Positions 7,561-64,000 of a stretch of 64,000 bases of DNA are shown here, one piece after another. The stretch covers positions 994 through 64,993 of the forward strand of contig JAPUHK010000024.1 of NCBI GenBank assembly GCA_027297745.1. The letters are read 5' to 3'. The notes under the pieces are model-generated. The model ran no database searches. It worked only from the letters and a program-made list of their open reading frames with translations, and was not told where the DNA came from. The stretch comes from Planctomycetota bacterium (GTDB lineage: Bacteria; Planctomycetota; PLA2). The translations under genes were made by a program, and so were the position numbers. Positions within the stretch are counted from its first letter, which is position 1. Each line of letters starts with the position of its first letter.

Positions 7561-7621
7561 AGGAGTTAGGGCGACGCGGCCCAGCCGCGGCGAAACATTC
7601 TATTCTACCGCCTGGGGGCGT

Positions 7622-8479: not shown

Positions 8480-8512
8480 GGTACCCGGCGTACCCGTCCG
8501 GGGGCCCTCCGT

Positions 8513-9658: not shown

Positions 9659-9754
9659 CGCCTCCGGCCGCTGAGGGGCGTTCATCCGCACCACACAGAG
9701 GCGTATACTGGCGCGCGGCGTCCGAGAGCCGCGTTGCCGGCAAGGGAGGGAAGC

Positions 9755-10612
9755 ATGAGTGAGTATGCACACCCCGGGATGATCGTCTCTACGCAGTGGT
9801 TGGCGGATCATCTCGACGACCCGGGCCTGCGCGTGATCGAGTCGGACGAGGACATCACGCTCTACCACTCCGGGCACATTCCCGGCGCGGTCATGGTCGA
9901 TTGGCAGAGCGAGCTGCAGGACCCCGTCGTGCGCGACTACGTCAACAAGGAGAACTTCGAGAAGTTGATGCGTGCGAAGGGGATCGGGCGCAACGACACG
10001 CTCGTGTTCTACGGCGACAACAGCAACTGGTGGGCCTGCTACGCGCTGTGGGCCTTCAAGATGTTCGGCCACGAGAACATGAAGATCCTCAACGGCGGGC
10101 GCCGGAAGTGGATCGACGAAGGGCGGCCGACATCGACGGACGAACCCGCCTATCCCGCCACGGACTACGAGGCGACGGGTCCGGACTACACGTGGCGCGC
10201 CTTCGCCGATGAGGTTCGCGAGTACGTCGAGGCGGACGGGCAGCTCGTGGACGTGCGCTCGCCCGGCGAATACACGGGCGAGCTGTTGCACATGCCCAAG
10301 TACCCGCAGGAGGGCGCGTTGCGCGCCGGACACATCCCCGGCGGCCGCAGCTGCCCGTGGTCGCGCGCCTGCAACGAGGACGGGACCTTCAAGTCCGCCG
10401 AGGAGCTGAAAGCTCTCTACGAGGGTGAGCTCGGGTTCGACGGCAAGCAAGAAGTGATCGCCTACTGCCGCATCGGCGAGCGCTCCAGCCACACGTGGTT
10501 CGTGCTGAGCTACCTGCTCGGCTACGGCAACGTGCGTAACTACGACGGTTCGTGGACCGAGTGGGGTAACCGCGTCGGCGCTCCCATCGTCAAAGGCGAT
10601 CAGATCCGCTAG
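9755..10612 (+). CDS. Two-domain rhodanese: thiosulfate / 3-mercaptopyruvate sulfurtransferase.
   Basis: A GGGAGGG ribosome-binding site precedes [11 protein letters not shown]. Tandem rhodanese domains. Active-site Cys in CRIGERSS (CRxGx[R/T] loop). Confidence 0.85.
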
Positions 10613-10623
10613 GCCAGCGGGTC

Positions 10624-11028
10624 ATGGACCGCAAGGCGATCATCGAGCGCATCCTGGACCATGCGGAGAGGCCGCGCGGAAAGGCCAAGCTGGATGACCC
10701 GGACCTGGTGCAGGCGGGCGGCAACCCCGGCTGCGGCGACGTGATCATCTGGATGGCGCACCTTGACGCGGAGGGGCGTATCCGCGACGTGGGTTGGGTA
10801 GGCCAGGGTTGCAACCTGAGCCAGGCGGGCGCATCGATGCTCAGCTCCCGGCTCGAGGGGCTCAGCCTGGACGAGATCCTGGAGCTGCCCGCCGACCTGC
10901 TGATCGAGGAGATCGGACCGCAGATGGCGTTGACCCGTCCGGCCTGCAGCAGCCTCGCGCTGAACACGATCAAGACGGCCGTCTACCGCTACAAGCAGGA
11001 GCGGGAGAAGGCCGCGCGGGAGACGTAG
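10624..11028 (+). CDS. SufU/IscU-like Fe-S scaffold protein (NifU N-terminal family).
   Basis: Three conserved Cys in NPGCGD, GQGCNLS and RPACSSL contexts. 134 aa. Confidence 0.7.
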   Translation: MDRKAIIERILDHAERPRGKAKLDDPDLVQAGGNPGCGDVIIWMAHLDAEGRIRDVGWVGQGCNLSQAGASMLSSRLEGLSLDEILELPADLLIEEIGPQMALTRPACSSLALNTIKTAVYRYKQEREKAARET

Positions 11029-11150
11029 GGGGGGCGTTGTCAGAACGAGAACCAACCTACCCCTACCTCTACCCCTGCCTCCGACACTTGCCCCTCCCCT
11101 CGCCCAGGGGAGACGGGCTAGGGGGCAAAGGTAGGGTAGGGGCGGAACAC

Positions 11151-11465
11151 CTACATCAACCCGAGCTGCAGCTTCGCGCCCTCGGACATGCGAGTCATGT
11201 CCCAGGGCGGGTCCCACACCAGCTCGACGGTCGACTTGGTGACGCCTTCGACCCCTTTCACCTTCGTCTCGACCTCGGGCGGCAGCGTGCCGGCCACCGG
11301 GCAGGCGGGCGACGTGAGCGTCATCTTGATCGTGACCTCGTTGTCGTCGTTGATGGCGATGTCGTAGATCAACCCGAGCTGATAGATGTCGACGGGGATC
11401 TCGGGGTCGTAGCAGGTCTTCAGGGCGTCGACCACGCGGTCGTGGAGCGTCGTTTCTTCTGCCAT
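11151..11465 (-). CDS. sufT: SufT / DUF59 (MIP18 family) Fe-S assembly protein.
   Basis: 104 aa. YDPEIPVDIYQLGLIY and TLTSPACPVAG motifs are typical of DUF59/SufT. Confidence 0.75.
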   Translation of the reverse strand: MAEETTLHDRVVDALKTCYDPEIPVDIYQLGLIYDIAINDDNEVTIKMTLTSPACPVAGTLPPEVETKVKGVEGVTKSTVELVWDPPWDMTRMSEGAKLQLGLM

Positions 11466-41623: not shown

Positions 41624-42979
41624 GTGCCCATGAGCTACGACGTGATCGTTTTCGGGGCCGGCAACGCAAACGACGTGGTGCGCATGGCCGGGAAGGCGGG
41701 CCTGCGGGTGGCTGTGGTGGAGAAGGGGCCGCTCGGCGGCACCTGCGCCAACCGCGGCTGCATCCCCTCGAAGCTGATGATCGCGTACGCGGATCGCGCC
41801 GGCCAGGTGCGCTCTGCGGGCCGCTTCCACATAGAGGCGGAGCTGCGTTCGATCGACGGCGGCAAGATCATCGAGGAGACCTTCGGCTACACGCGCCGCT
41901 TCGACAAGCTGGTGGAGGACGGCTATCCGGAAGGCGTCGAAGTGCACCGCGGACACGGGACCTTCGTCGACAACCACACGGTCGCCGTCAACGGCACGGA
42001 GCTGCGCGGCGACAAGATCGTGCTGGCGACGGGCTCGCGCCCGCGCCGGCCCGACATCCCCGGGCTGCAGGGCACGCCGTACTGGACCAGCGACGAGGTG
42101 TTCGAGATGGAGCGCCTGCCGGCCTCGCTCACGATCGTCGGCGGCGGCTACATCGGCTGTGAGCTGAGCCACTTCTTCAACGGTGTGGGCGTCGAGACGA
42201 CCCTCCTGGTGCGCACCGAGCACCTCCTGGGCCGCGAGGACGAGGAGGCCTGCGCCGTCATGCAGAAGGGCTTCACAGAGCGCGTCCCGACACGCTTCAA
42301 CGTGTTCGTGGAGGCCGTGGCCCACGAAGACGGGAGCTTCCTGCTGACGCTCAGCGACGGGAGCGAGCACACCTCCGAGGCGCTGTTGTTCGCCATCGGC
42401 CGCATCCCCAACAGCGACCAGATCGCCATCGAGAACACGGACTTGAAGCCGAACGCGCATGGCTACGTCGAGTCCGACGACCACCTGCGCACATCGGTGC
42501 CGCACATCTATTCGCTGGGCGACGTGGCAGGGCGCTACTTCTTCACGCACACGTCCAGTTTCGAGGCGGCCTACCTCGGCCGGCAGATCGTCGAGGGGCT
42601 CGACGAGCCGATCGACTACGGGCCTGTAGGGCATGCAATCTTCACGTCGCCGGAGATCGCCGGCGTGGGGGCGACCGAGCAAGAGCTGAAGGAGCGCGGG
42701 GAGGACTACGTGGCGGCATCCGTGCCCTACTCGTCCTACACGAAGGGGCGCGCGCTCAAGGAAGAGCATGGGCTGTTCAAGCTCATCCTCGACCGCGAGG
42801 GCAAGATCCTCGGCTGCCACGTCGTCGGGCACGAGGCGTCGGTGCTTCTGCACGAGGTCTTGCCCGTGATGAAATGGCGCAACCACGTCAGCTCGATCAC
42901 GGACGTGATCCACGTGCACCCGTCGCTGCCGGAGATCGTGCGCGGCGCCGCGGGCAAGGCCGCGGCGCTGCTGAAGTAA
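41624..42979 (+). CDS. Class I pyridine nucleotide-disulfide oxidoreductase (Lpd/Gor/MerA-like flavoprotein disulfide reductase).
   Basis: FAD motif VIVFGAGNAN. Redox-active GGTCANRGCIPSK. NAD(P) Rossmann IVGGGYIGCE. C-terminal dimerisation His-Pro motif HVHPSLPE. Confidence 0.85.
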   Translation: MPMSYDVIVFGAGNANDVVRMAGKAGLRVAVVEKGPLGGTCANRGCIPSKLMIAYADRAGQVRSAGRFHIEAELRSIDGGKIIEETFGYTRRFDKLVEDGYPEGVEVHRGHGTFVDNHTVAVNGTELRGDKIVLATGSRPRRPDIPGLQGTPYWTSDEVFEMERLPASLTIVGGGYIGCELSHFFNGVGVETTLLVRTEHLLGREDEEACAVMQKGFTERVPTRFNVFVEAVAHEDGSFLLTLSDGSEHTSEALLFAIGRIPNSDQIAIENTDLKPNAHGYVESDDHLRTSVPHIYSLGDVAGRYFFTHTSSFEAAYLGRQIVEGLDEPIDYGPVGHAIFTSPEIAGVGATEQELKERGEDYVAASVPYSSYTKGRALKEEHGLFKLILDREGKILGCHVVGHEASVLLHEVLPVMKWRNHVSSITDVIHVHPSLPEIVRGAAGKAAALLK

Positions 42980-53496: not shown

Positions 53497-53566
53497 CCCA
53501 CGATCCCAACGAAAAGCGGGGCGCCCGTTTCAGGGCGCCCCGCGCTGTTGGCTGTGAGTCCGTGGA

Positions 53567-56395
53567 CTAGGGTCCGCTGACGTAGTTGCCGGCGTTGCCC
53601 CCGATGTTGCCGTTGGCGTCCAGCCAGGAGTCCAGGTGGATTCCGATGGCCGGGTCGGGGTTGGTCAGCCTGTCGATCAGCGTGCCCGTCAGCGGTCCCG
53701 CCATGGTCGGGTTGGGCGTGCCCGTGCGCAAGCTCGGGCCCGTCCCCGGCATGAGCGGGTGGTTGCTGGAGCTCGTCGGAGTTCCGTCCGCGAGCACGAT
53801 GCTGTCCAGGTTGTAAGCGATGCGGGTCATGAACGTGGCCGGGTCGAAGGCCGTCGCCGGCGCGACCGTCACGTTCTGGATGCCCGGATCGGCGAAGATG
53901 CCGTACCGGTTCGGGTTCTGGTCCAGCGGGTTGATAGCGCCGCCGTTCCCGTCGAACAGGAACAGCCCCGTACCCAGGCCGGCCACCATGTGCACCCAGA
54001 AGGGTGAGTTCATCTGGTTGCCGGAGTTCTGGCCGAAGTGCTGCCTCAGCTCCGTGAAGTCCAGTTGATCGTAGCTTCCGCTCGCCATGGCGGAACGGAA
54101 GGCCACGTACTCGGTCCCGTACTGCTGCATACCCGCCTCGGTGATGTGGCACGCGACGCAGTAGCGCGGGCCCTCCATGGTGGAGGTGACGCGGCCGCGG
54201 ATCGAGTGGGCCATCATCGCGTTGTGACCGAGCGAGGGCGTTTGGTTGGGGTCGCTCCCCTGCGCCTTGCGGTCGGAGAACGTGAAGATGCTGGACAGCT
54301 GGTTGTTGCGGTCCTCCCACTGGAAGAACATCTTCGTGTTCGAGCTGACCTGCGTGATCTCGTTGTGCGGGCTGATGCCCAGCGCCATGAACACGGGCGA
54401 CTGGTACACGAACTCGGCCTCGTCCTCCTCGAAGACGATGCGCTCGCCCGTGATGTTGCTGAAGTCATTCGAGTACTCGCCCTTCAGGTGACAGCCCATG
54501 CACGTGTTCGTCCACGAAGCGTGGCAGGACGCGCAGTCCAGGTCGTCCGTGTGGCTGAAGTTGCTCGGGACCGCGTTGTTCGCCTGGATCGGACCTATGC
54601 CGGTCGTGCCCAGGCCGTCGTCACGGCCCATCGCATAGGAGGCCTTGTCGCTGTACAGGGGCGCCCCGCTGAACGGGTGCGTCCGGCCCGTGTTCACGGT
54701 GACGTCCAGCGTCTGCGGGACGAAGTGACGCGCGCCCGTGAGACGGCTGTACAGGTAGAAGTGGCCGTCGCTCTCCAGCACGACGTGCGCCAGGGTGTTC
54801 CCCTCGCCGTCCACCGCCAGCTCCTGGGTGGTGTTGTCGTAGGCCGTGCCTTGAGCCGTCTGGGCATAGGCCGCGACGCCGCCGTGGCAGCTCTCGCAAC
54901 GGATCCCCACGGCGTGCTCCATGCGGCTCACGATCTTGCCGCCGCTCGGGGAGGTCACGTCGCCGCCGTGCAGGTCGAAGCTGCCGTGGCAGTCGATGCA
55001 GCCCATGCCGGCCTCGTAGTGCACGTCGGGCGGGGTGTCGTCGCGGCCGTCGTCGTCGTAGTCCTCCTCGAGGAGGTACTGGTTGCGGTTGCGCCCGTTG
55101 AACTCGCGGTTCCCCAACCGGATCAGGACGCCGTTCTGGTCGTAGATCGGCAGGTTGGGGTCGAACAGGCGCGTGTCGCCGGAGGTCGTCCGGTAACTTC
55201 CCGGCTGCGACGGGTACTGGAAGCCGCGCCGCACGTCCTGGTTCTGGTCGAGGCGGATGCCCCAGTACTGCATGACCGTGCGGTTCGAGCCCTGGTGGCA
55301 GCCGGCGCAGGCGTAGTCGTCGATGCCCTGGACGAACTCGCCGCTGGACAACGTCTTGGCCACGGTGCGGATCAGGTGGCGGGCGACGTGCGGCAGCTCG
55401 GGCTCGTCGATGTCGTCCGGATCGTACGGCTCCATGCGGTTGAGGTTCGGATCGTTGCTGGTGGAGCGCCCGCTCAGGCTGTGGCGCATGTGGCACGCCG
55501 AGCAACCCGAGCCGCGGTAGTCGCCGTAGCGGTTGTTCGCGCCGGCGCTGCCGAGGTGGCAGTCTCCGCAGGTGTAGGCGATCTGCTCGTGATAGAGCTT
55601 CGCCAGCGGGGAGTCCGTGATCGCCTGGCCCGTCAGCGGATCGATGTCGTCATCGAGCTCGGCGGCGTCGAAATCCGGGTTGTTGCGGATGTCGTTCGGG
55701 CCGTTGTTGAAGCGCCGGCTGTAGACCGGGAACTCCATCAGGTTTTGCACCGAACCGAAGGTCGTCGGGTCGAAGCTCTGGTCCGTGACGGCGCGAATGC
55801 CCAGGTCGGCGGCCGTGTCCTCGTAGCCCGTGTACCCCATCTGGTTGTCCACGCCGGCCGCGAACATCGCGCCGGAGAAGATGCCCATCTCGGTGGCGAT
55901 CGGGCTCTGGGACACGATCTGCGCGTGGTTCGCGTGGCACTGGCCGCAGCTGCGGTTCTGCGTGACCACGCGGATGTCGGCCGGGCTGACGAACTGCAGC
56001 CAGTCCAGCGCGCTGTAGGTCTGCCCGTTCGCGGCCGTGTAGTCCGGGAACTTGTCCGGACCGGCCAGGGTCAGCCGGTTGAAGTAGGCGTGGTCGTTGT
56101 TGATCCAGTTCTGCCGGTCGCCGATCTCGGGCGGCGCCGGGACGTGGCTCGAGGCCCTGTCCGTCCCGTTCGGGTTTCCGCCGTGGCAGGTGGTGCACAG
56201 CAGGTTGCTGGCGCCCGTGAAGGGGTGTGGGTTCTCGAGGCCCGGGCCCCCGTAGTTGTTGTCCACGGAGCCGTTGTGGCAGGTCATGCACGACTGGGCC
56301 GACGCTGTGATCGCGCGGCCGCTGGAGTCGACGCAGCCCGTCACGACGAACGCCAGTAGGAAGATGACTGAGAGGAGACCTCTGTGATGAGTCAT
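53567..56395 (-). CDS. Undecaheme c-type cytochrome lipoprotein (outer-membrane / extracellular multiheme cytochrome candidate).
   Basis: Lipobox LAFVVTGC. Eleven CxxCH motifs (CMTCH, CTTCH, CGQCH, CGDCH, CSACH, CAGCH, CIDCH, CESCH, CASCH, CMGCH, CVACH) in about 940 aa. The ATG at 56395 has an alternative GTG at 56407. Confidence 0.85.
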   Translation of the reverse strand: MTHHRGLLSVIFLLAFVVTGCVDSSGRAITASAQSCMTCHNGSVDNNYGGPGLENPHPFTGASNLLCTTCHGGNPNGTDRASSHVPAPPEIGDRQNWINNDHAYFNRLTLAGPDKFPDYTAANGQTYSALDWLQFVSPADIRVVTQNRSCGQCHANHAQIVSQSPIATEMGIFSGAMFAAGVDNQMGYTGYEDTAADLGIRAVTDQSFDPTTFGSVQNLMEFPVYSRRFNNGPNDIRNNPDFDAAELDDDIDPLTGQAITDSPLAKLYHEQIAYTCGDCHLGSAGANNRYGDYRGSGCSACHMRHSLSGRSTSNDPNLNRMEPYDPDDIDEPELPHVARHLIRTVAKTLSSGEFVQGIDDYACAGCHQGSNRTVMQYWGIRLDQNQDVRRGFQYPSQPGSYRTTSGDTRLFDPNLPIYDQNGVLIRLGNREFNGRNRNQYLLEEDYDDDGRDDTPPDVHYEAGMGCIDCHGSFDLHGGDVTSPSGGKIVSRMEHAVGIRCESCHGGVAAYAQTAQGTAYDNTTQELAVDGEGNTLAHVVLESDGHFYLYSRLTGARHFVPQTLDVTVNTGRTHPFSGAPLYSDKASYAMGRDDGLGTTGIGPIQANNAVPSNFSHTDDLDCASCHASWTNTCMGCHLKGEYSNDFSNITGERIVFEEDEAEFVYQSPVFMALGISPHNEITQVSSNTKMFFQWEDRNNQLSSIFTFSDRKAQGSDPNQTPSLGHNAMMAHSIRGRVTSTMEGPRYCVACHITEAGMQQYGTEYVAFRSAMASGSYDQLDFTELRQHFGQNSGNQMNSPFWVHMVAGLGTGLFLFDGNGGAINPLDQNPNRYGIFADPGIQNVTVAPATAFDPATFMTRIAYNLDSIVLADGTPTSSSNHPLMPGTGPSLRTGTPNPTMAGPLTGTLIDRLTNPDPAIGIHLDSWLDANGNIGGNAGNYVSGP

Positions 56396-56630
56396 TTCTG
56401 ATCTCACTTTGCCCGACCCCTCCGGCGGCGACCGCCGGAGTCCGAGCGAGAGGGCGTGAGAGCCGGCCCCACGAGGGAGAGACCAACACGCGGTAGTCCG
56501 ATGCTAGGAACGGGTATCACTTGGAGGGGGGCCTGAGAGACGCAACTTGAGACTTCAGCCGGAGCGTCTCGTTGTGAGGCGGCTCGATCGGAAACGCCGG
56601 CGGTCTGCCCCACAAACCGTGCGGGGCCGC

Positions 56631-57278
56631 TCAATTGACGGCCGGCACCCATGCCGTGGGCACGTGGCACTCGTGGCAGTTGTCGACGAAGCCCAGCGGG
56701 ATGTGGGGGGGATTGGTGGTGTTGTTCCGGTCGTCCACGTGGCACGTGACGCACTCGGTGTCCACGGGGATGAAGTTGCCGACCCGCGCGCCCGGGTGGC
56801 AGCGGTAGCAGGCCACCAACGTGTGGGCGCCGAGCAGCGGGAAGCGCGTCCGGTCGTGGAGCGCGATCTGGCCCACGGGGCGCCAGGTCTGCTCGGTGTG
56901 GCAGCGGGTGCAGTCCTTGTCCAGGTCGCCGTAGTGGTAGTCCTCGTGGCAGCCCGTGCAGCCCTGCGAGTGGAAGATCGCCACAGGCCCGCGGTCGTTG
57001 TGGCAACGCAGACATTGCGCCTGCTCATGAGCCCCGTTGAGAGCGAAGCCGGTGTTGGCCAGGTGGTTGAACTTGAAGTCGCTCTTGAGCTTGTTCCAGT
57101 CACCGCCCACGTGGCACAGCTGACAGTCGGCCGGGAACGAGTCGTGCGGCAGGACCGGTCCGAAACCCGCCCACCAACGGTGCTGCTTGCCGGTCAGCGG
57201 GCGCGCGGCGGCGCAGGCCAACAGGATCGCGCTCAGGAGCGCGATCGCGATCGGGCGTCTACGGAATCGGAATCGCAT
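56631..57278 (-). CDS. Periplasmic heptaheme c-type cytochrome.
   Basis: Signal peptide MRFRFRRRPIAIALLSAILLACAAA. Seven CxxCH motifs (CQLCH, CLRCH, CTGCH, CTRCH, CYRCH, CVTCH, CHECH) in about 215 aa. A GAGAG ribosome-binding site lies 12 nt after the OMP stop codon. Confidence 0.85.
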   Translation of the reverse strand: MRFRFRRRPIAIALLSAILLACAAARPLTGKQHRWWAGFGPVLPHDSFPADCQLCHVGGDWNKLKSDFKFNHLANTGFALNGAHEQAQCLRCHNDRGPVAIFHSQGCTGCHEDYHYGDLDKDCTRCHTEQTWRPVGQIALHDRTRFPLLGAHTLVACYRCHPGARVGNFIPVDTECVTCHVDDRNNTTNPPHIPLGFVDNCHECHVPTAWVPAVN

Positions 57279-57290
57279 GGGTATCAACTC

Positions 57291-59081
57291 TCAAAAGCCC
57301 TTCTGCCAGGTGAACCCAGCGGACCACGAGATCTCCTTGTCGTAGGCGACGACCTCCCCGAACACGTAGACGTCCCAGTTTCCGACGCGATAGACGCTCA
57401 AGCTGCCGCGCAGACGTTGCTGCACCAGGTCGTCCCGGTTCGCGTTCAGGCCGTGGATGTGGTGGAAGGCAAGCTCGTACATCAGGTCCCACCTGCCCTT
57501 GGCCGTCGTGCGGCCGTAGAGGAGACGCACGCCCGCCACGCTCTCGTACTGGCCGATGTTGCCGTAGCCGACGAGGTCCAGGTGCGCCTGGCGCCGCAGC
57601 GTCTGTTCGACGCCGATGTCGAACGCGCCGCCGCTGCCGTCCTCGTCGACCCAGCCGCTGACGTGCCCGTGCAGGCGCCTGTCGGCGCCCAGCATCTTCC
57701 AGAGGTTCAGCGCCAGCCGGTCGAACTCGTTGTTCGCCAGGTCGGCGGCGAAGACGATGGGACGGTATTCGCCCTCCCGCAAGAGCTCTGCGAACGCCCA
57801 GTGCTGATAGAGGAACTGGATGCCGCCCCGGGCGAAGGTGCGGTTCAGGGAGGCGATGGCCTGCGTGATCTCTATGCCTGAGCCCTTGATCGGGTCGCTG
57901 GCGGAGTAGAAGTCGACCCAGATCGTGGCGTGGAAGGCCCAGCCGTCCACCGGCAGAACGTGCATGCGGGCCACCAGGAGGTCGCGGTCCGGGTTGCCGT
58001 TGTTCCAGGTCTTCTGGAAGCCGCCGGCGATCAGGAAACGCTCGTTCGGGTCCTGCACCCACTCGTACCAGCCCGCCAGCTGGAAGTCCTCGAAGGTGTC
58101 GAAGTCGTCGTTCAGCTCCGGCATGTAGCCCATGCTCACGCCGTAGCGGTGCCCGTTGTCGCCCCTATGCGCCCACTGCAGGCCGTCCAGCACGCCGAAC
58201 TCGGGCATGCCGTGCTGCAGGAAGCGGCCGACCTCCCAGCGGTTGCTGTTGAAGCGATTTCCGCCGCGGAAATAGGAGAGGCGGCGCAGCAGGAAGTCCC
58301 CCGTGAGGTCGCTGTTGTACTTGTAGTTCGCCAGGTAGGCCGCCTCCGCGTTGAGGCGGAAGCCGCCGCCCTTGCCGAAGGGATTCGAGTAGGTCAGGTC
58401 CGTGCCGACTCGCAAGTAGGAGCTGGTGAAGTCGCTGTCGGGGTTGTCCGTCACCGCGGCGCTCACATAGGTGAAGCCGGCGAGCCCCTTCCGGCGGTTC
58501 TTGGGGCGCACGGCTCCGGTCTCGGCCAGCAGCGACTTGCTCGTGGACCACTCCTCGTCCTTGTTCTTCCAGGGCGGGTGTTCCGGAGTCTCGCCCTCGG
58601 TGCCCGCGGCAGCAGCGCCTCCGGCTGCCGCTGCACCTGCGGCGACTCCGGCGCCGTCTTTGTCCTTGTCTTCCGGCTCGCCTTCGCCTTCCGGCTTGGT
58701 GCCTTCCCCTTCAGGCTGTCCGCCTTCGGGTTCCGGTTGCAGTTCGGGCTCCGGCTCAGGATCGGGTTGCGTGAAGCGCGAAGCCGGGATCAGCACTTCG
58801 CCGCGCGTGCCCGCTTCGGGAACGAACTTGGCGTCGCGCATCTCGACCACCGCGCTGCGCGCGCGGACCGAGAGCACGGTTCCGGAATAGGTGCCGCCCT
58901 GGCGCGGGAAGAAGGACACGACGTCGCCGATGGCGAGGCCGTCCCGCTTGCCGCGGTCGATGGTGACCGAGGCTCCGGGTCCCGCGGAGCTCACGCGCAG
59001 GGACACACGTTCCAGCTCTTCCTGCGCCCATGCGGACACGCAGGTCCACAGGACCATGGAGAGCAGAATTACAAGCCTCAC
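57291..59081 (-). CDS. Outer-membrane beta-barrel protein (porin-like), candidate sheath of a porin-cytochrome conduit.
   Basis: A GTG start overlaps the upstream stop codon (GTGA) and is preceded by GGAAGGAAGA. Signal peptide MRLVILLSMVLWTCVSAWA. An acidic PEPE/Gly-Ala low-complexity linker. Alternating amphipathic beta-strands. C-terminal aromatic residues FTWQKGF. Confidence 0.75.
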   Translation of the reverse strand: MRLVILLSMVLWTCVSAWAQEELERVSLRVSSAGPGASVTIDRGKRDGLAIGDVVSFFPRQGGTYSGTVLSVRARSAVVEMRDAKFVPEAGTRGEVLIPASRFTQPDPEPEPELQPEPEGGQPEGEGTKPEGEGEPEDKDKDGAGVAAGAAAAGGAAAAGTEGETPEHPPWKNKDEEWSTSKSLLAETGAVRPKNRRKGLAGFTYVSAAVTDNPDSDFTSSYLRVGTDLTYSNPFGKGGGFRLNAEAAYLANYKYNSDLTGDFLLRRLSYFRGGNRFNSNRWEVGRFLQHGMPEFGVLDGLQWAHRGDNGHRYGVSMGYMPELNDDFDTFEDFQLAGWYEWVQDPNERFLIAGGFQKTWNNGNPDRDLLVARMHVLPVDGWAFHATIWVDFYSASDPIKGSGIEITQAIASLNRTFARGGIQFLYQHWAFAELLREGEYRPIVFAADLANNEFDRLALNLWKMLGADRRLHGHVSGWVDEDGSGGAFDIGVEQTLRRQAHLDLVGYGNIGQYESVAGVRLLYGRTTAKGRWDLMYELAFHHIHGLNANRDDLVQQRLRGSLSVYRVGNWDVYVFGEVVAYDKEISWSAGFTWQKGF

Positions 59082-61156
59082 CGCTTTTCTTCCTTCGCGC
59101 CCCGGCGGAACGGGTTCTCGTCCTCGCCGTGGCAATCGGCGCACCTGCCCCCCATCGGGCGATAGCGGATGAAGTCTTTACCGTTCTCGCGAACTGGTAA
59201 ATGGCAGGCGGAGCAGGCCAGGGGGGTGTGGGCCTCCCCGAGCTGGAAGCTCGAGTCCAGGTCGTGGCGGAAGCTCAGGTCCGTGAAGGCCGCAGCGGCA
59301 GGCCTGTGGCAGCTCCGGCAGTCGGTCAGCCCCTTCACCTCGAACTGCCCGGCATGGGAATCCTGGTGGCAATCCGAGCAGTGGCCGCCCTTGGCGCGGG
59401 CCCAGGTGCGCCCGGCCTCGTCCGGCTCCCGCAGGGGGGTGTGGCAGTCGGCGCAGTCGACTTTCTTGTGCTGGCCGACCAGGGCGAAGCCGGTCCAGCG
59501 CTTGTGGTCGAAGCCGTTCGGGAAGGTCCGGAACGAGCTCTCGCCGTGGCAGCGCTCGCAGCCGGTCTTGCCCTTGAAGGTGCGCGGCATGCCGGGCTTG
59601 TCGAAGTCGTTCTTGTGCGGATCGATGTGGCACGTGTCGCACCCCTCGTACACGCCGAAGCGATCCGAGACGCGGCCGAACGTGCGGCCGAAGCGGTCGG
59701 GTTCCGGGGTGCGCGGGTGGCAGGCCTCGCACTCCTCCTGCGCGTGGGCCGCGACTAGCGGGAACCCCGTCCACGGGCCGTGGTCGAAGGCCTCGGGCGG
59801 GATGTCCCGGAAGTCCGTGGCCAGGTGGCAGTCGGCGCAGCGGCCGTACGTGCTCGCCGATGTCTCCGGCGCGAACTGCTCGAAGAACCCCTCGTGCGGG
59901 TCCGGATGGCATCCGGCGCACTTGACGGGAGTCCCGTGGAACACGCGCGGGCTGCCCTCGATGGGCGCCGCCTCGTGGCACGCGTTGCAGTCGGTCTCGA
60001 TATGGCTGCCGATCAAAGGCAGGGACGTCTCCGCGTGCATCTCGACGCTGAAGATGTGCGGCTCGAAGTAGAGCGTCCCGTGGCAGGCGACGCACGCGCC
60101 GCTCTTGAACGAACCCTCGCCGAACTGGCCGCCGTGGGGATCCTCGTGGCACGCGGCGCAGTCGTCGGCCGCGCGGGCCGGGTAGCGGGCCTTGAAGTCC
60201 TCGTGGTTGAGATCGTGGCAGTCCGCGCAGCCCACTTCGTGATGCGGATCGGTGAGCGAGAACCCGGAGCTTTCGTGCTGCTCCACGGTCATCTCCCCGA
60301 GCTGCCTGTCGTTCCAGGTCGTGTGCTCCGCGCGATGGCACACGTCACAGGCGGCGCCGGTGGGGCGGGAGACCTGCAACGCGACGCCGTCGACGAAACC
60401 CTCGGCGTGCGAGTTCGCGTGGCAGTCCACGCACATGCGCGCGGCCGGGGCGCGATTCTCGCCTAGCGCCTCGAGCGTGTAGGGCTCGTTCGCGTGGCAG
60501 GAGCGGCACTCCATGTTGCTGTGGCCGCCGATCAGCTGCAGGTAGTCCTCGTGGCCGCGCGACTCCAGCTCCGCCCAGGCGCGTTGCCCGTGGCACTGGA
60601 CGCAGCTCAGCGCCGCGTAGCGGCCCTCGTGCACATCCCCGTGGCACGTCGTGCACTCCTGGTCGAGCCCGATGTAGCGCGTCGCGCCCTCCGGCAGGAT
60701 CTCGATGTTCACCTGCAGGTGGCACTCGTTGCAGGCCAGCTCGATGTGCCGGCCGTCCATGGGGAAGCGGATCATGTTGTGGTCGAACTCCGCCGGGTCG
60801 GGCACGCCCGCGGCCGCGAAGCTCTGCCGGTTGACGATGGCGAAGCCCGCGCCGTGGTGCTCGCTGTGGCACAACGCGCACAGCATGGCCTTGTTCCCAA
60901 TCACGCCGTGGAGTCCGTTTCCGGCGGCGATCTGCGCGTCGATCGTCTTGTGGCACTCGAGACACGCATCCGACATGCTCAGGAACAATCCGCCGTGGCA
61001 CGCGGAGCAGCTCTCGCCGCGGTTCAGGTCGCCCACGCGCGCGTGGACGGCCGTGACCTCTCCCGGTGACTTGCGCCCGAGGTGGCCGATCACGACGTAG
61101 AGCACCGCCGCAGCCGAGGCCAGGCCGATCCAGAGGCCGGGACGTCCCAGCTTCAA
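59078..61156 (-). CDS. Membrane-anchored 23-heme c-type cytochrome.
   Basis: N-terminal signal-anchor (LWIGLASAAAVLYVVIGHL). 23 CxxCH motifs counted by eye in 692 aa, about one per 30 residues. A TTG start overlaps the upstream stop codon. Confidence 0.85.
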   Translation of the reverse strand: MKLGRPGLWIGLASAAAVLYVVIGHLGRKSPGEVTAVHARVGDLNRGESCSACHGGLFLSMSDACLECHKTIDAQIAAGNGLHGVIGNKAMLCALCHSEHHGAGFAIVNRQSFAAAGVPDPAEFDHNMIRFPMDGRHIELACNECHLQVNIEILPEGATRYIGLDQECTTCHGDVHEGRYAALSCVQCHGQRAWAELESRGHEDYLQLIGGHSNMECRSCHANEPYTLEALGENRAPAARMCVDCHANSHAEGFVDGVALQVSRPTGAACDVCHRAEHTTWNDRQLGEMTVEQHESSGFSLTDPHHEVGCADCHDLNHEDFKARYPARAADDCAACHEDPHGGQFGEGSFKSGACVACHGTLYFEPHIFSVEMHAETSLPLIGSHIETDCNACHEAAPIEGSPRVFHGTPVKCAGCHPDPHEGFFEQFAPETSASTYGRCADCHLATDFRDIPPEAFDHGPWTGFPLVAAHAQEECEACHPRTPEPDRFGRTFGRVSDRFGVYEGCDTCHIDPHKNDFDKPGMPRTFKGKTGCERCHGESSFRTFPNGFDHKRWTGFALVGQHKKVDCADCHTPLREPDEAGRTWARAKGGHCSDCHQDSHAGQFEVKGLTDCRSCHRPAAAAFTDLSFRHDLDSSFQLGEAHTPLACSACHLPVRENGKDFIRYRPMGGRCADCHGEDENPFRRGAKEEKR

Positions 61157-63378
61157 CTTTTGCCCCCGAAGAAGAAGGGGTAGTACGCGAGCGCGTAGAC
61201 GATGTGGATTACCACCAGCAGCACCATCAGCGCCGCCATCCAGCGGTGCAACCAGCGCCAGGTGCCGAGCACCGCGCGCAGGTCCTCATAGTGCGCCGCC
61301 ATGAGCGCCGTGCGGTGTGCCTTGCGCGCGAGCTGCATCGTTTCCTTGATCTGCTCCTCGTCGATGCCCTCTTCACGCCCTTCGTCCTCCAGGCGTGTGA
61401 GCAAGCGCTTCAAGCCGCCCCGGCCGGTCAGCATGGACAGCACGCGCCCAAGGAACCCCGAGCCCCATTGCTTCTTCTCGATCAGCTCATCCACCGCGCT
61501 GCGCGCCCGTTCGCGGTACTCCCGTTGGCCCTGGTCCCACTCCTCGGACATGCGGCCGAGGCGGGCCTTGACCTCCTGCAGCTCCAGCTCGCGTCCGTTC
61601 GCGGCGCGCGGCACGCAGGCGTAGAAGTAGCGTCCGATGGCGCCGGTGACCAACAGCACCGCCAGCGCCCAAAAGGCGTGCCCCGCGACGGTGTTGCCGG
61701 GCGCCATGGCGCCGTGCAGCGTCGCCAGCAAGAGCGCCAGGATGCCCGTGGCGACGTGGCTCGTCATCCAGATCTGCAGGGAGCCGACGTTGAGCCGGAA
61801 GCGCGGCGAACGCCGCACCAGATAAAGGAGGTTCACGAGGATCAGCGCGGTCGCGCCGATGCCCAGCCACAGGCCGAGGCCGAGGCCCGGGCGCAGCAGC
61901 GCATGCTTCGGGTGCGCGGCGCGCGCGGAGGCCGGCAGGCCGTAGTAGTCCGCGTGCACCATGACCCAGACCAACGCGGCCAGCGAGAGTGTGAAGCCGA
62001 TGCCGAGCGCGTGGACCAGGCCCGTGCCCTGCTCGCCGAGCTGGGGCGCCGCCTTGCGCAGCGACGGGTCGAAGGACACGCCCGAGCGTTCGAGCAGCTC
62101 CAGCGGCGCGCTGCCGCCCGCCATCACGAACACCTCGTCGTTCGGCAACGTGCGCGTCGCCGTGCCGTAGCCGCTCTGCACCGTGAGCTCGACCGAGTCC
62201 GGACGGATCGCCCGCACTTCGCTGTTGAACAGGACCTCGAGCTTGCCCTCGCGCAGGCATTCGTCCAGGCGCTCCTGGTTCTTGGGTCGAATGCGGAAGA
62301 AGCTCTCCTTGCGGTACGAGAGCGTCACCTGGTTCCCCGGTTGCTCCGCGAGACCCATGGCCGCCTCGACCGCGCTGTCGCCGCCGCCGACGACCAACGT
62401 GCGCCGGTGCTGGTACGAGTGGGCGTCCAGCAGGCTGTAGGCCACCTTGGACAGGTCTTCGCCTTCCACGCCGAGCTTGCGCGGCGAGCCGCGGCGGCCC
62501 ACCGCCAGACAGACGTTGCGCGCCGTGTAACTGCCGGTCTTGGTGCGCACGACGTAATTGCCGTCGTCGTCCCGGCTAAGACCCACGAACGTCTCCTGGG
62601 AGCGGATCGGCAGCTGCTGCTCCTCCGCGATGTGCGCCCACAGCTCGACCAGCTCTTCCTTCGTGTAACTGGACTTCAGGCGGCCGTAGAGCGGCAGGTC
62701 GACCGGCTGGCTCATGATCAGCTTGCGCCGCGGGTACTTCGCGACCGTGCCGCCGGGCCCGCTCTCCTGGTCCAGCGTCACGAACTTCAGGCCGTGGCGC
62801 TTGGCCTCGAGCGAACACGCCAGGCCGGCGGGGCCGGCGCCGACCACGCACAGGTCCAGCGTGCCGTTGGGGTTGGGCTCGTGCTCCAGGCGCCGCGCGA
62901 CTTCGCCCGCTACGGCCGTTCCGTGGTCGACGGCGGTCTTGATCAGCGAGTGCGCGGTCACCTCACCCGCGAGGAACAGCCCGGGCGAGCCCACGGCCTC
63001 GAGCTGTTCGGTCAGGACCGGGATGTCCCGGCGCTCGGCGATGTCGCTCAGCGTGACCTTGATCGCGCCGACGGGGCACTCGCGCTCACACAGGGCATGG
63101 CCGACGCAGCGCGCGCCGTGCACGACCATGGCCTGGCCGTGCACGAGCTTCAGCACCTGGTCCTCGGGACAGACGTCGACGCACGTGCCGCAGCCCAGGC
63201 AGCGGGACAGATCGACGACGGGTTGGGCGAGCTGGGCCTTGTCACTCCCCTGACGGACCGCCTGCTCACGGTCGCCCAGCGCGCGGCGCATGCGCCGGAG
63301 CTCCAGGCGCCGCGCGATCGCCACCATGAGGGATAGGCCTAGGGCGACTACGACTCCAATAAGGAGGGGCCAACTCAT
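61153..63378 (-). CDS. Membrane-bound fusion oxidoreductase: N-terminal TM helix + 2x[4Fe-4S] ferredoxin + FAD/NAD(P)-binding (TrxB/GltD-like) domain + C-terminal polytopic domain with His-bearing TM helices (putative cytochrome b).
   Basis: CLGCGTCVDVCP and CVGHALCERECP. Rossmann motifs VVGAGPAGLA and VVGGGDSAVEAA. Five or six C-terminal TM helices with conserved His (MVHADYYG, TSHVATGILALLLATLHG, GHAFWALAVLL, VVIHIVYAL). GGAG ribosome-binding site before the ATG at 63378. Confidence 0.75.
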   Translation of the reverse strand: MSWPLLIGVVVALGLSLMVAIARRLELRRMRRALGDREQAVRQGSDKAQLAQPVVDLSRCLGCGTCVDVCPEDQVLKLVHGQAMVVHGARCVGHALCERECPVGAIKVTLSDIAERRDIPVLTEQLEAVGSPGLFLAGEVTAHSLIKTAVDHGTAVAGEVARRLEHEPNPNGTLDLCVVGAGPAGLACSLEAKRHGLKFVTLDQESGPGGTVAKYPRRKLIMSQPVDLPLYGRLKSSYTKEELVELWAHIAEEQQLPIRSQETFVGLSRDDDGNYVVRTKTGSYTARNVCLAVGRRGSPRKLGVEGEDLSKVAYSLLDAHSYQHRRTLVVGGGDSAVEAAMGLAEQPGNQVTLSYRKESFFRIRPKNQERLDECLREGKLEVLFNSEVRAIRPDSVELTVQSGYGTATRTLPNDEVFVMAGGSAPLELLERSGVSFDPSLRKAAPQLGEQGTGLVHALGIGFTLSLAALVWVMVHADYYGLPASARAAHPKHALLRPGLGLGLWLGIGATALILVNLLYLVRRSPRFRLNVGSLQIWMTSHVATGILALLLATLHGAMAPGNTVAGHAFWALAVLLVTGAIGRYFYACVPRAANGRELELQEVKARLGRMSEEWDQGQREYRERARSAVDELIEKKQWGSGFLGRVLSMLTGRGGLKRLLTRLEDEGREEGIDEEQIKETMQLARKAHRTALMAAHYEDLRAVLGTWRWLHRWMAALMVLLVVIHIVYALAYYPFFFGGKS

Positions 63379-63435: not shown

Positions 63436-63978
63436 CTACTTGCCGCCGGCGCTTCGCGCCCTGAGCTCCCGGTCCCGGGAGCTGCCGCTGACGTTCATGG
63501 ACGTGGCCTTGCGTCGCGTCTCGCCCTGGCTGAAGGCCGGGGCAGGCGGGCCCTCGACGGGCTGGGCGGCGCTCACGGGCAGGGCGGCCGACTCGACATA
63601 CGCGCGAGCAGCCTTCAGGCAGGCGTCGAACTCGCCGTCGAGATCAGAGACCCGCTTGGCCAGCGCGCGCGCTTCGCCCTGGATCTCGGACACGGCCACG
63701 GGGTTGAGGTCGTTGCCCAGGAAGAGCGCGTGGTCGCGCAGGCTGTTGTTGACCGCATCATAGGACGCCAGGGCGGGCTCCGCGGCCGCGACGATGGCGT
63801 GGTAACGCTCGCGAGTCTCCACCAAGCGGTTGCGGCTGCGCTGGCGCAGCTCCACGCTGCTGATGTCCTTGAGGTCATCGGCCCACTGATCGAAGACCGG
63901 ATCGCTCGAGTCCTTCATGTTCTCGATGCTGTCCCGAAGCTTTTCGGCCTGCTCCTCGGAGTTCTCGATGGCCGTCAT
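63436..63978 (-). CDS. Hypothetical protein (coiled-coil rich), possibly N-terminally truncated by the window edge.
   Basis: 180-aa track ORF ending 57 nt upstream of the oxidoreductase gene. No family recognised. Confidence 0.4.
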   Translation of the reverse strand: MTAIENSEEQAEKLRDSIENMKDSSDPVFDQWADDLKDISSVELRQRSRNRLVETRERYHAIVAAAEPALASYDAVNNSLRDHALFLGNDLNPVAVSEIQGEARALAKRVSDLDGEFDACLKAARAYVESAALPVSAAQPVEGPPAPAFSQGETRRKATSMNVSGSSRDRELRARSAGGK

Positions 63979-64000
63979 GAACTCCCCGTAGGCCGTAACC

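Follow-up and report, generated by a model that had tools for sequence, protein, structure and literature searches.

A widespread planctomycetal Fe-S/flavoprotein/putative di-haem b fusion as a candidate entry module of a PCC3-like cytochrome conduit

We identified in Planctomycetota a 741-aa fusion protein that, on balance and by a modest margin over even odds, we propose to feed electrons into a PCC3-like trans-envelope cytochrome conduit at the inner membrane, as an entry module that would bypass the quinone pool and resemble a bacterial counterpart of NADPH oxidase/ferric reductase. Its gene lies in the window, a 64,000-nucleotide stretch of a planctomycetal contig, on the minus strand, as do all the features described below. 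The ATG-started open reading frame spans exactly 61153-63378. The ORF list, domain matches and full-length homologues define an N-terminal transmembrane (TM) anchor, an Fe-S domain, a flavoprotein and a five-TM domain of di-haem b type, so that the four parts of the original prediction are all present, with corrections to several of them. This is a genuine gene and not a chance reading frame, since more than 120 protein clusters share the full architecture (about 740 aa each, 60-95% identity) and the key residues are invariant. The MSW.LL N-terminus is also kept in the homologues. Nor is the fusion unusual, as had been thought: relatives were found in 395 species genomes, and the best 80 of these 395 are essentially all Planctomycetota, the cultured Saltatorellus ferox included, and many Planctomycetota carry it as a standard protein. 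Homologues as distant as about 30% identity still have the fused architecture.

Residue conservation was counted over 54 full-length homologues. The N-terminal anchor (aa 4-22; 63313..63369) has a Kyte-Doolittle score of 2.57 and a charge bias indicating an N-out/C-in orientation, with an average of 8.4 K+R over the 30 residues that follow the helix and no K or R preceding it among the 54 homologues; no twin-arginine motif was found ahead of the helix in the homologues. By the positive-inside rule, the predicted cytoplasmic side holds the Fe-S/FAD module together with the TM2-TM3 loop and a helical insert of the membrane domain, and a periplasmic Fe-S/FAD module, which would have spoken against the original prediction, is not what the charge bias indicates.

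The ferredoxin-type domain (aa 53-107; 63058..63222) matches Pfam Fer4_7, Fer4 and Fer4_10. Its first motif is C60-x2-C63-x2-C66-x3-C70-P and its second C91-x5-C97-x3-C101-P, which gives seven invariant cysteines in the 54 sequences. At aa 94, where the eighth ligand would be expected, 31 of the 54 sequences have H, 14 have V and 9 have I. Because this residue is not a cysteine, the second motif reads C-x5-C-x3-CP and resembles that of SdhB/FrdB, which we take to be of the [3Fe-4S] type. The seven invariant cysteines and this resemblance indicate that the domain probably binds one [4Fe-4S] and one [3Fe-4S] cluster, instead of the two [4Fe-4S] clusters first proposed.

The flavoprotein (aa 174-440; 62059..62859) contains two dinucleotide-binding domains (Pyr_redox_3, E 3.4e-45), with the FAD motif G180-A-G-P-A-G185, the NAD(P)H motif G331-G-G-D-S-A-V-E338, and invariant R356 and R362. 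Its top PDB sequence matches are YpdA/Bdr (7a7b, 5.8e-22) and the TrxR-type ferredoxin:NADP+ reductases (FNRs) 2zbw and 3ab1. By sequence it is thus closest to YpdA/Bdr, TrxR and TrxR-type FNR, and not to GltD/SudA as had been suggested. The predicted absence of a CxxC disulfide does hold: outside the Fe-S domain no CxxC occurs in the 741 aa, the remaining cysteines being 177, 188, 290, 374 and 588.

TM segments, a structure model and sub-threshold family matches characterize the C-terminal membrane domain (aa 451-741; 61156..62028) as a putative di-haem b domain of the PCC3/PCC4 'IMP' type. The AF2 model of this domain alone had a pLDDT of 88.6 and a pTM of 0.80; the pTM of the full-length model was 0.50. 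Two of the five helices carry an invariant H-x13-H pair, fewer than the conserved histidine on every helix initially claimed. These are TM3 (W537-x3-H541-x13-H555; 61711..61779) and TM5 (W707-x3-H711-x13-H725; 61174..61266), and both pairs are conserved in 54/54 sequences. The charge-bias topology puts one histidine of each pair near each membrane face, H541 and H711 on the cytoplasmic side and H555 and H725 on the periplasmic side. Five other histidines are kept in 41-53 of the 54 sequences: H567, H696 and, in the periplasmic loop, H475, H489 and H492. A conserved motif of the periplasmic loop, YYxLP..R..H.xH, may be where quinone or a partner binds. TM4 (aa 564-589; 61612..61689) contains an SGxxG-type motif, T578-G-A-I-G582-R-Y, followed by P590 and G595-R-E-L-E; G579, G582, R583 and P590 are invariant.

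This conservation extends to stand-alone relatives of the membrane domain at about 20-32% identity. They share H541 and H555 and the invariant TM4 residues; in their own numbering, neither W268 nor H272 varies in the A2 or the A3 alignment, and H286, the equivalent of H725, is invariant in A3 and at least 90% conserved in A2, so that all four TM histidines are invariant in A3. They also share the cytoplasmic insert between TM4 and TM5 (aa 590-704, about 120 aa; 61267..61611), which is helical in the structure model, carries a mean of 22 K+R per 121 aa and is possibly a docking platform for the Fe-S/flavin module.

An exhaustive search with the membrane domain returned 1,484 representatives. 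Among 56 family members, 33 matched DUF4405, 17 Ferric_reduct and 13 Ni_hydr_CYTB, all of which we take to be di-haem b families; these matches, the only ones at family level, are all below the gathering thresholds and span the last helix only. No transporter family was found among the profile matches, so a non-redox transporter with unconserved histidines is not what this domain resembles. In fold searches the best membrane match was CybB, a modest hit amid many helical bundles; apart from it no haem protein was matched significantly, neither STEAP nor MsrQ nor NOX, to which we liken the fusion as an NAD(P)H:cytochrome entry module. Together these data suggest a putative di-haem b carrier. 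Such a proposal is already published for this domain: He et al. (2017) described a hypothetical di-haem trans-membrane 'IMP' of PCC3/PCC4 porin-cytochrome clusters, SGxxG-type motif included, whose motif set matches that of the fusion (PMC5566968).

The genomic context is that of a cytochrome conduit. The next gene encodes a 692-aa c-type cytochrome (59078..61156) with 23 CxxCH motifs (30 aa per haem), Pfam Cytochrome_C7 and Cytochrom_c3_2 matches and an N-terminal hydrophobic anchor or signal. Its listed TTG start overlaps the stop of the fusion gene by 4 nt, and in 84/84 loci the gene immediately after the fusion gene is a homologue of this cytochrome gene, which bears out the expected co-occurrence with multihaem cytochromes. 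A gene for a secreted porin-like protein follows (57291..59144; likely start the GTG at 59081, overlapping the stop of the cytochrome gene). This protein has a signal peptide and ends in ...WQKGF; it has no Pfam or NCBIfam match and no TM helix (maximum Kyte-Doolittle 1.1), and its C-terminal Phe and cluster position point to a putative outer-membrane beta-barrel. Then comes a 218-aa lipoprotein with seven CxxCH motifs and the lipobox LLAC (56631..57287), conserved across loci at 47-65% identity; the porin-like and 7-haem genes come next at every locus where the contig reaches. A 946-aa lipoprotein with 11 CxxCH motifs and the lipobox VTGC (53567..56407), presumably at the cell surface, is restricted to a closer subfamily of loci. 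After this last cytochrome gene, a terminator-like hairpin of 11 G-C pairs with a T-run (53516..53543) closes the operon. At the other end, the fusion gene is the first redox gene but possibly not the first gene of the operon, as had been stated: a DUF2959 gene truncated by the edge of the window (63436..64000; E 6e-22, profile positions 63-188 of 190) precedes it by 57 nt on the same strand, occupies this position in most closer-subfamily loci, and may be co-transcribed, no terminator having been found between the two.

In other phyla, a TM-anchored Fer4+Pyr_redox_3 protein is encoded by its own gene next to that of the stand-alone membrane protein in 8/9 contexts; in an Acidobacteria context the neighbor is a non-homologous FNR-type reductase (FAD_binding_6/NAD_binding_1/Fer2). 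A cytoplasmic NAD(P)-reductase is thus adjacent in 9/9 contexts, and multihaem cytochromes in 8/9.

In the route we propose, the TrxR-like FAD domain would oxidize NAD(P)H, probably NADPH, in the cytoplasm and pass single electrons through the [4Fe-4S] and then the [3Fe-4S] cluster to a cytoplasm-side haem b (H541/H711), from which they would pass through the membrane to a second haem b on the periplasmic side (H555/H725) and on to the membrane-tethered 23-haem cytochrome. The porin-like protein and the two haem lipoproteins would complete the path to an extracellular acceptor, with Fe(III)/Mn(IV) minerals and humic substances as candidates. The wiring of NAD(P)H to cytochromes through a di-haem b domain, as originally predicted, is supported by the invariant TM histidines, the topology, the family matches and the 84/84 and 9/9 linkages; that no quinone would be required along the way is our inference.

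A quinone-active membrane domain is the foremost alternative, and one that we consider appreciably less probable. The fusion would then be an NAD(P)H:quinone oxidoreductase, like di-haem succinate:menaquinone reductase, with electrons passing from the flavoprotein via [3Fe-4S] and two haems to a periplasmic-side quinone, or a quinol:cytochrome oxidoreductase, electrons reaching the cytochromes through the quinone pool or while equilibrating with it. Type-B SQR/QFR and NarGHI likewise have a cytoplasmic [3Fe-4S] cluster adjoining a five-TM di-haem anchor, CybB is a quinone reductase, and the conserved Tyr, Arg and His of the periplasmic loop would fit. A quinone-active IMP was also proposed for PCC3/PCC4 (PMC5566968). 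However, no recognizable quinone-site family signature was found in the membrane domain, the pairing with cytoplasmic NAD(P)-reductases would be needless for a simple quinol dehydrogenase, and the translational and syntenic coupling to the 23-haem cytochrome suggests direct haem-to-haem transfer. The quinone-active and quinone-bypassing readings are compatible and not mutually exclusive.

Inward flow, in which Fe(II), Mn(II), reduced humics or a cathode would feed the conduit and the fusion would reduce NAD(P)+ or ferredoxin, appears unlikely. In other systems, multihaem conduits can run in either direction, as discussed in PMC10734462. PCC3 was, moreover, discovered in Fe(II)-oxidizing bacteria and discussed there as an electron-uptake system. 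Established bioenergetics nevertheless disfavors this direction, which the original prediction had offered as an option: the NAD(P)+/NAD(P)H couple is more negative than those of Fe(II)/Mn(II) by several hundred mV, electrons would move against the membrane potential, and the fusion has no evident energy coupling, with neither an ion-translocating subunit nor a second, bifurcating flavin. The kinship with YpdA/Bdr, TrxR and TrxR-type FNR could also suggest a membrane-tethered low-molecular-weight-thiol/disulfide reductase or an FNR for cytoplasmic metabolism, with a structural or regulatory link to the cytochromes (for example, redox sensing, or the provision of reducing power to cytochrome maturation), but this is highly improbable given the lack of a CxxC or of a Cys at the YpdA GGGPCG position, scores (150 and 71) far under the respective family cut-offs (340 and 343), the Fe-S domain always attached to the flavoprotein, and the retention of membrane protein and cytochromes where a non-homologous FNR/2Fe-2S protein has taken the place of the reductase, which argues for a generic electron-input role.

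On the proposed quinone-bypassing path, the membrane potential would help drive electrons outward, so that the route would consume and not conserve proton-motive force, and the conduit would function either as a sink for electrons or in metal reduction. An outward electron-only route that dissipates the membrane potential would be an odd design for respiration. To our knowledge, all characterized Gram-negative pathways of this kind need the quinone pool. If our proposal is correct, these Planctomycetota would connect NAD(P)H to surface cytochromes for extracellular electron transfer, apparently without it.

The gene at 61153-63378 (reverse strand) is an open reading frame of exactly this extent that starts with ATG and encodes a protein of 741 aa. 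This fusion protein combines a hydrophobic helix at the N-terminus (aa 4-22), a ferredoxin-type Fe-S domain (aa 53-107; Pfam Fer4-family matches), a two-Rossmann flavoprotein (aa 174-440; Pfam Pyr_redox_3, E 3.4e-45) and about 290 C-terminal residues with five hydrophobic segments and many His, for which no family match above threshold was obtained. The reading frame, the Pfam domains and the hydrophobic segments thus confirm the observation that the four parts are joined in one polypeptide. The AF2 model of the full-length protein had a pTM of 0.50. The original prediction had also called the fusion unusual, a label that was dropped in view of its prevalence, as relatives of the fusion protein were found in 395 species-representative genomes. 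Essentially all of the best 80 of these 395 were labelled Planctomycetota or subgroups thereof (a few just "bacterium"), and one of these 80 is the cultured Saltatorellus ferox Poly30, which has a complete genome (locus L044). The fused architecture extends to proteins in which the membrane domain is only ~30% identical. For residue conservation, 54 full-length fusion homologues with 61-95% identity were aligned (alignment A1).

Seven Cys of the Fe-S domain (positions 60, 63, 66, 70, 91, 97 and 101) are invariant in A1 (n=54). The first cluster motif is complete, and the second reads C91-x5-C97-x3-C101-P because the position expected for the eighth ligand, aa 94, is occupied by His (31 sequences), Val (14) or Ile (9). 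The [3Fe-4S] site of SdhB/FrdB shows this C-x5-C-x3-CP pattern, with a hydrophobic residue in place of the missing Cys. Judging from these motifs, a [4Fe-4S] and a [3Fe-4S] cluster are the most likely content of the domain; where aa 94 is His, the second site might instead be a His-ligated [4Fe-4S] cluster. By its Pfam matches, the domain belongs to the Fer4 fold family but, with its seven Cys, is not the canonical 2x[4Fe-4S] ferredoxin that had been proposed, which has two CxxCxxCxxxCP motifs and eight Cys. The unfused Fe-S flavoprotein of Bacteroidota (Sunxiuqinia; 9874-11211 of locus L085) has C-x5-C-x3-CP in both motifs and six Cys, with Ser and His in the two missing-ligand positions; this pattern suggests two [3Fe-4S] clusters or non-Cys ligation.

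The flavoprotein domain retains the GAGPAG motif for FAD and the GGGDSAVE motif for NAD(P)H throughout A1. R356 and R362 are invariant, and position 357 is Lys or Arg (A1, n=54). NADPH is suggested as the preferred substrate because these residues fall at what we take to be the positions where the E. coli thioredoxin reductase (TrxR) binds the 2'-phosphate. The closest relatives by sequence in the PDB were YpdA/Bdr (7a7b, 5.8e-22) and the TrxR-type ferredoxin-NADP+ reductases 2zbw and 3ab1. These enzymes share the two-Rossmann FAD/NAD(P)H fold class with aa 174-440 and also lack the CxxC of TrxR, but they are soluble and have neither Fe-S nor membrane domain. No CxxC was found in the fusion protein outside the Fe-S domain, as had been predicted for the flavoprotein.

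Assignment to a known enzyme of this fold class was rejected in three cases. The top NCBIfam model, the YpdA-like TIGR04018, scored 150 bits against a cut-off of 339.9, and the FAD motif is GAGPAG instead of the GGGPCG of bacillithiol-disulfide reductases of the YpdA/Bdr type; the active-site Cys of YpdA is presumably located in this GGGPCG motif, at a position that is Ala in the fusion protein. A thioredoxin reductase (TIGR01292; 71.5 vs 343 bits) would carry a CxxC in the NADPH domain. The likeness to GltD/SudA put forward in the original prediction was not recovered either: the match of PRK12771 is limited to aa 58-110 and that of PRK12770 to aa 320-358, each scoring far under its cut-off, and no GltD/SudA structure was among the PDB sequence matches, save a weak match to NfnA (E 1.5e-5). 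About 20 kb away, the window also encodes an apparently ordinary class-I pyridine-nucleotide-disulfide oxidoreductase of 451 aa (41624-42979, forward strand; Pyr_redox_2 plus dimerisation domain), which is unrelated to the cytochrome cluster.

Exactly four His of the membrane domain (aa 451-741) are invariant in A1 (n=54): H541 and H555 on its third transmembrane helix (TM3), and H711 and H725 on its last. Each pair is spaced as H-x13-H, with an invariant Trp at -4 (W537 and W707). G579, G582, R583 and P590, the latter located after the fourth helix, are invariant as well, and the other His are conserved only in part. Invariant His are thus confined to two helices and do not occur on every one, as had been thought. 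Regarding topology, the 3-aa segment before the N-terminal helix of the protein has zero charge, the next 30 aa contain a mean of 8.4 Lys plus Arg (A1, n=54), and a twin-arginine motif ahead of this helix is absent. Within the membrane domain, the TM2-TM3 loop has 4.1 Lys plus Arg in 14 residues and the TM4-TM5 insert of about 120 aa is highly charged, while few of these residues occur in the TM1-TM2 and TM3-TM4 loops and in the C-terminal tail (A1). Because of this charge bias, the positive-inside rule would place the Fe-S/FAD module, as predicted, and the TM4-TM5 insert in the cytoplasm, and the bias speaks against a periplasmic location of the module. By the same rule, H541 and H711 would lie near the cytoplasmic face and H555 and H725 near the periplasmic face, an arrangement that would correspond to two haems, each with bis-His ligation, one above the other in the membrane.

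With aa 440-741 as the query, an exhaustive HMMER search yielded 1,484 representatives at the 50% clustering level, among them stand-alone proteins of ~290 aa and proteins with other N-terminal extensions. In stand-alone relatives with 20-32% identity (alignments A2 and A3), both Trp, the GxxG motif and P590 are invariant or almost so; all four His are invariant and R583 is at least 90% conserved in A3, and H725 is at least 90% conserved in A2. When 56 members were scanned one by one against Pfam, only sub-threshold matches were obtained, namely to DUF4405 (PF14358; 33/56), Ferric_reduct (17/56) and Ni_hydr_CYTB (13/56), which are all di-haem b families, and no transporter family recurred. This result and the conservation of the four His favor the redox domain of the original prediction over a transporter. 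The AF2 model of the membrane domain alone (pLDDT 88.6, pTM 0.80) has five TM helices. No significant match was found when this model was compared with the PDB using Foldseek (best E 0.47) or when the family profile was searched against PDB sequences, where cytochrome b6 appeared at E ~2-7 over the last helix only. A kinship with the four-helix di-haem bundles of prokaryotic cytochrome b561 (PF01292; e.g., E. coli CybB) or DUF4405 is possible; CybB gave a modest fold match among many helical bundles. Some relatives of the membrane domain (P0226, of 1125 aa, P0160, P0170 and P0203) have no reductase but begin with a Pro/Ala/acidic-rich stretch of 100-850 aa that is apparently disordered and contains no recognisable domain.

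In its motifs, the membrane domain matches a protein already described. He et al. (2017, PMC5566968) defined the hypothetical porin-cytochrome clusters PCC3 and PCC4. They noted that an inner-membrane protein (IMP) is conserved in them, which is ~300 aa long and has five TM helices; W-x3-H-x13-H is found on both TM3 and TM5, and TM4 carries SGxxG. They proposed this IMP to be a ferric-reductase-domain-like di-haem b protein, possibly active with quinones. Compared with this published description, aa 451-741 carry the exact motif set: five TM helices in both the hydrophobic segments and the model, W537/H541/H555 and W707/H711/H725, and T578-G579-A-I-G582 on TM4, a motif that begins with Thr in the close family and has the consensus SGxIG in A3. 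A di-haem b carrier across the membrane is proposed in both cases. The clusters are alike as well: the periplasmic cytochromes of PCC3, which is present in Gallionellaceae (PMC10734462), have 21-27 haems and that of the window has 23, and a protein with a predicted porin-like fold and extracellular multihaem cytochromes are encoded alongside. They differ from PCC3/PCC4 in gene order and in having two smaller lipoprotein cytochromes, not one very large extracellular one. A quinone site in the membrane domain is possible; the conserved periplasmic loop YYxLP..R..H.xH may be such a site or one for a partner. Unlike the IMP as described, however, the membrane domain is fused to, or in other phyla encoded beside, a cytoplasmic NAD(P)H flavoprotein with Fe-S clusters, which would point to NAD(P)H as the source of the electrons and away from the quinone pool proposed by He et al.

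The unfused relatives point to the same pairing. In all nine contexts analyzed, the stand-alone membrane proteins adjoin a gene for a cytoplasmic NAD(P)-flavoprotein/Fe-S protein. This is the same TM-anchored Fer4+Pyr_redox_3 protein (~445-464 aa) in eight of them, with a gene that lies downstream, upstream-overlapping or divergent. The ninth context, from Acidobacteria (7610-9939 of locus L086), is the only one with an FNR-type neighbor: a non-homologous, membrane-anchored reductase of 464 aa with FAD_binding_6, NAD_binding_1 and a C-terminal 2Fe-2S domain, whose gene precedes that of the membrane protein with a 4-nt overlap. It is a non-homologous replacement of the electron-input module. 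That the reductase can be swapped for an unrelated one while the membrane protein and the cytochromes stay argues that its role would be generic electron input from NAD(P)H. Multihaem cytochromes are encoded in 8/9 of the stand-alone clusters, and locus L090 is the exact unfused equivalent of the order in the window: reductase, membrane protein (4-nt overlap) and a 661-aa cytochrome. Two clusters with a stand-alone membrane protein (3631-6180 of L091 and 3685-6195 of L092) encode an AMIN-domain protein of ~840 aa between the multihaem cytochromes and the membrane protein/reductase pair. Elsewhere this place is taken by the porin-like gene, and the AMIN-domain protein may be an outer-membrane component of another kind.

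In the window, the gene directly downstream of the fusion gene on the same strand shares 4 nt with the end of the fusion gene (61153-61156, reverse strand), going by its listed start. It encodes a cytochrome of 692 aa that contains 23 CxxCH motifs, or one haem per 30 aa, and begins with a hydrophobic anchor. A PDB sequence search with this 23-haem cytochrome returned zero matches. Its stop would in turn overlap the start of the porin-like gene (59078-59081, reverse strand) if the GTG at 59081 is used, and such overlaps between successive genes of the cluster suggest translational coupling. The porin-like protein (617 aa, secreted, of no family, ending in ...WQKGF) is probably an outer-membrane barrel; its amphipathic beta-strand ratio of 1.34 lies between those of the controls (1.0 and 2.59). 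At aa ~125-185 (58590-58770, reverse strand), a low-complexity linker, PEPEPELQPEPEGG...AAGAAAAGGAAAAG, first acidic/Pro-rich and then Ala/Gly-rich, divides a small N-terminal domain from the putative barrel. Genes for a 7-haem lipoprotein and, as the last cytochrome, an 11-haem lipoprotein follow on the same strand, up to a strong terminator (53543-53516) beyond which the genes are unrelated to the cluster. Upstream, the fusion gene is preceded on its own strand, at a distance of 57 nt and with no intervening terminator, by a DUF2959 gene that runs past the end of the window (63436-64000, reverse strand), and a sigma-70 promoter scan found no site within the cluster.

This linkage is conserved. 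In 84/84 loci, the gene after the fusion gene encodes a homologue of the 23-haem cytochrome, usually 0-100 nt away, and the porin-like and 7-haem genes come next wherever the contig continues. The 11-haem gene and DUF2959 belong to the closer subfamily only; DUF2959 is found at the matching position in most loci of this subfamily (e.g., L001-L004 and L006-L009) and not beside the distant paralogous clusters. Several Planctomycetota genomes have two paralogous whole clusters (L008/L082, L037/L055, L021/L081 and L054/L080), each made up of the fusion gene and the genes for a roughly 23-haem cytochrome, the porin-like protein and the 7-haem protein; the 11-haem gene and DUF2959 are present in just one of the two copies.

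A path for the electrons can be proposed from what was observed: the domains that are joined, the invariant residues, the charge bias of the topology and the linked genes. The identity of the cofactors, the way the electrons run, their partner and their acceptor are what we infer. Electrons from cytoplasmic NAD(P)H would enter the FAD of the TrxR-like domain, pass through the [4Fe-4S] to the [3Fe-4S] cluster, cross the membrane via an inner and an outer haem b, and leave through the 23-haem cytochrome to the porin and surface cytochromes. We tentatively propose, at slightly less than an even chance, that this one operon encodes the complete wire, which would bypass quinones and include a 23-haem cytochrome spanning the periplasm. 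The original prediction is partly supported: its core idea, an NAD(P)H module connected to cytochromes through a di-haem domain, holds, although several of its details were corrected. Outward flow would be aided by the membrane potential with the proton of NAD(P)H left inside, so that the route would dissipate proton-motive force. This fits a route that disposes of reductant or reduces metals better than one that conserves energy. Flow in reverse, from an extracellular donor to NAD(P)+, has a low probability for energetic reasons alone, as both the redox potential and the membrane potential would oppose it, and nothing that could serve as a coupling device is apparent.

By analogy, a chain like that of NADPH oxidases and ferric reductases (NOX/FRE) would be the most economical reading of the outward route. 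In both, electrons would pass from cytoplasmic NAD(P)H to a flavin, an inner haem b, a surface-side haem b and an extracytoplasmic acceptor. The ferric reductase domain has four canonical haem-ligating His on TM3 and TM5, spaced H-x13-H and H-x12/13-H (Zhang et al. 2013, PMC3591440), and the membrane domain has this arrangement, as two H-x13-H pairs. Its matches to Ferric_reduct (PF01794) are weak, at 20.1-20.5 bits over the last helix only against a gathering threshold of 28. It has five TM helices and an ~120-aa cytoplasmic insert instead of the six-TM core, and no fold match of the domain to NOX or STEAP was found, nor similarity to the MsrQ fold. The reductase is N-terminal, of the Pyr_redox_3/TrxR type and has two Fe-S clusters, not C-terminal and FNR-like (FAD_binding_8 plus NAD_binding_6), and the acceptor would be a multihaem cytochrome rather than O2, an Fe(III) chelate or a flavinylated protein.

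The chain would also be architecturally parallel to di-haem succinate:menaquinone reductase and NarGHI, in which a [3Fe-4S] cluster feeds a five-TM di-haem anchor. Type B succinate:menaquinone reductase/fumarate reductase and NarGHI likewise have a cytoplasmic flavoprotein or catalytic part and an Fe-S chain that ends in a [3Fe-4S] cluster of the C-x5-C-x3-CP type, and their electrons cross the membrane through two haems b with bis-His ligation. They belong to other protein families, are not single polypeptides, and act on succinate, fumarate or nitrate instead of NAD(P)H; no quinone-site family signature was recognised in the fusion, and its partner would be a cytochrome c conduit.

In pathway position, the fusion protein would correspond to CymA of Shewanella and ImcH, CbcL and CbcBA of Geobacter, which feed periplasmic multihaem cytochromes from the inner membrane and, through them, a porin-cytochrome outer-membrane complex (Mtr, Pcc OmaB-OmbB-OmcB or ExtABCD conduits). 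These proteins are quinol oxidisers with c-type haems (CymA and ImcH) or with HydC/FdnI-like or cytochrome-bc-like b-haem domains, and none of them has a flavin or an NAD(P)H site. The gene order in the window (periplasmic cytochrome, porin, lipoprotein cytochromes) resembles, as we understand it, that of ExtABCD. Membership in the Pcc/Ext or Mtr component families (DmsE/MtrA decahaem, ExtM/N/O, MtrC) was rejected on model cut-offs (decahem_SO 60.9 bits vs 192; ExtM 58.9 vs 800, both NCBIfam), with a partial match to Mtrc-MtrF_II-IV_dom (42.5 bits, cut-off 30) in the 23-haem protein only. The likeness is one of organisation, not of family.

The membrane module and the cluster type are already known from the bioinformatic description of 2017 (PMC5566968), as are NAD-binding fusions of ferric-reductase-domain-like proteins, namely the bacterial MsrQ-like-NAD-binding fusions (Meheust et al. 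2021, PMC8238504). We found no description in the literature of the pairing or fusion of the IMP module with a TrxR-like Fe-S flavoprotein, which is likewise absent from a 2026 preprint on extracellular electron transfer in peat and from a paper on Verrucomicrobia porin-cytochrome clusters, nor of the quinone-independent input that the pairing implies. To our knowledge, every characterised Gram-negative pathway of extracellular electron transfer (Mtr/CymA, ImcH, CbcL, CbcBA) draws on the quinone pool. If our reading is true, the module would be the first quinone-independent inner-membrane entry point for such transfer. Functionally, it would be the prokaryotic counterpart of NADPH oxidase/ferric reductase, here coupled with a porin-cytochrome complex. 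The module occurs fused in hundreds of Planctomycetota species and as two separate genes in contigs assigned to Bacteroidota and Acidobacteria. Its bioenergetic design would be a different one, in which no energy is conserved and the membrane potential assists, and would suit the disposal of reductant or the reduction of metals. For engineered electron export from the NAD(P)H pool, the version on one polypeptide would be attractive as a part. As the cultured S. ferox Poly30 carries the cluster, the hypothesis is open to direct test.

The IMP of PCC3/PCC4 would then be reinterpreted and given a concrete function. We know of no metal respiration in Planctomycetota. In this phylum, our reading would give a function to a protein whose present annotation in hundreds of genomes is just "NAD(P)-binding domain-containing protein" or "thioredoxin reductase", as well as to the large multihaem cytochromes.
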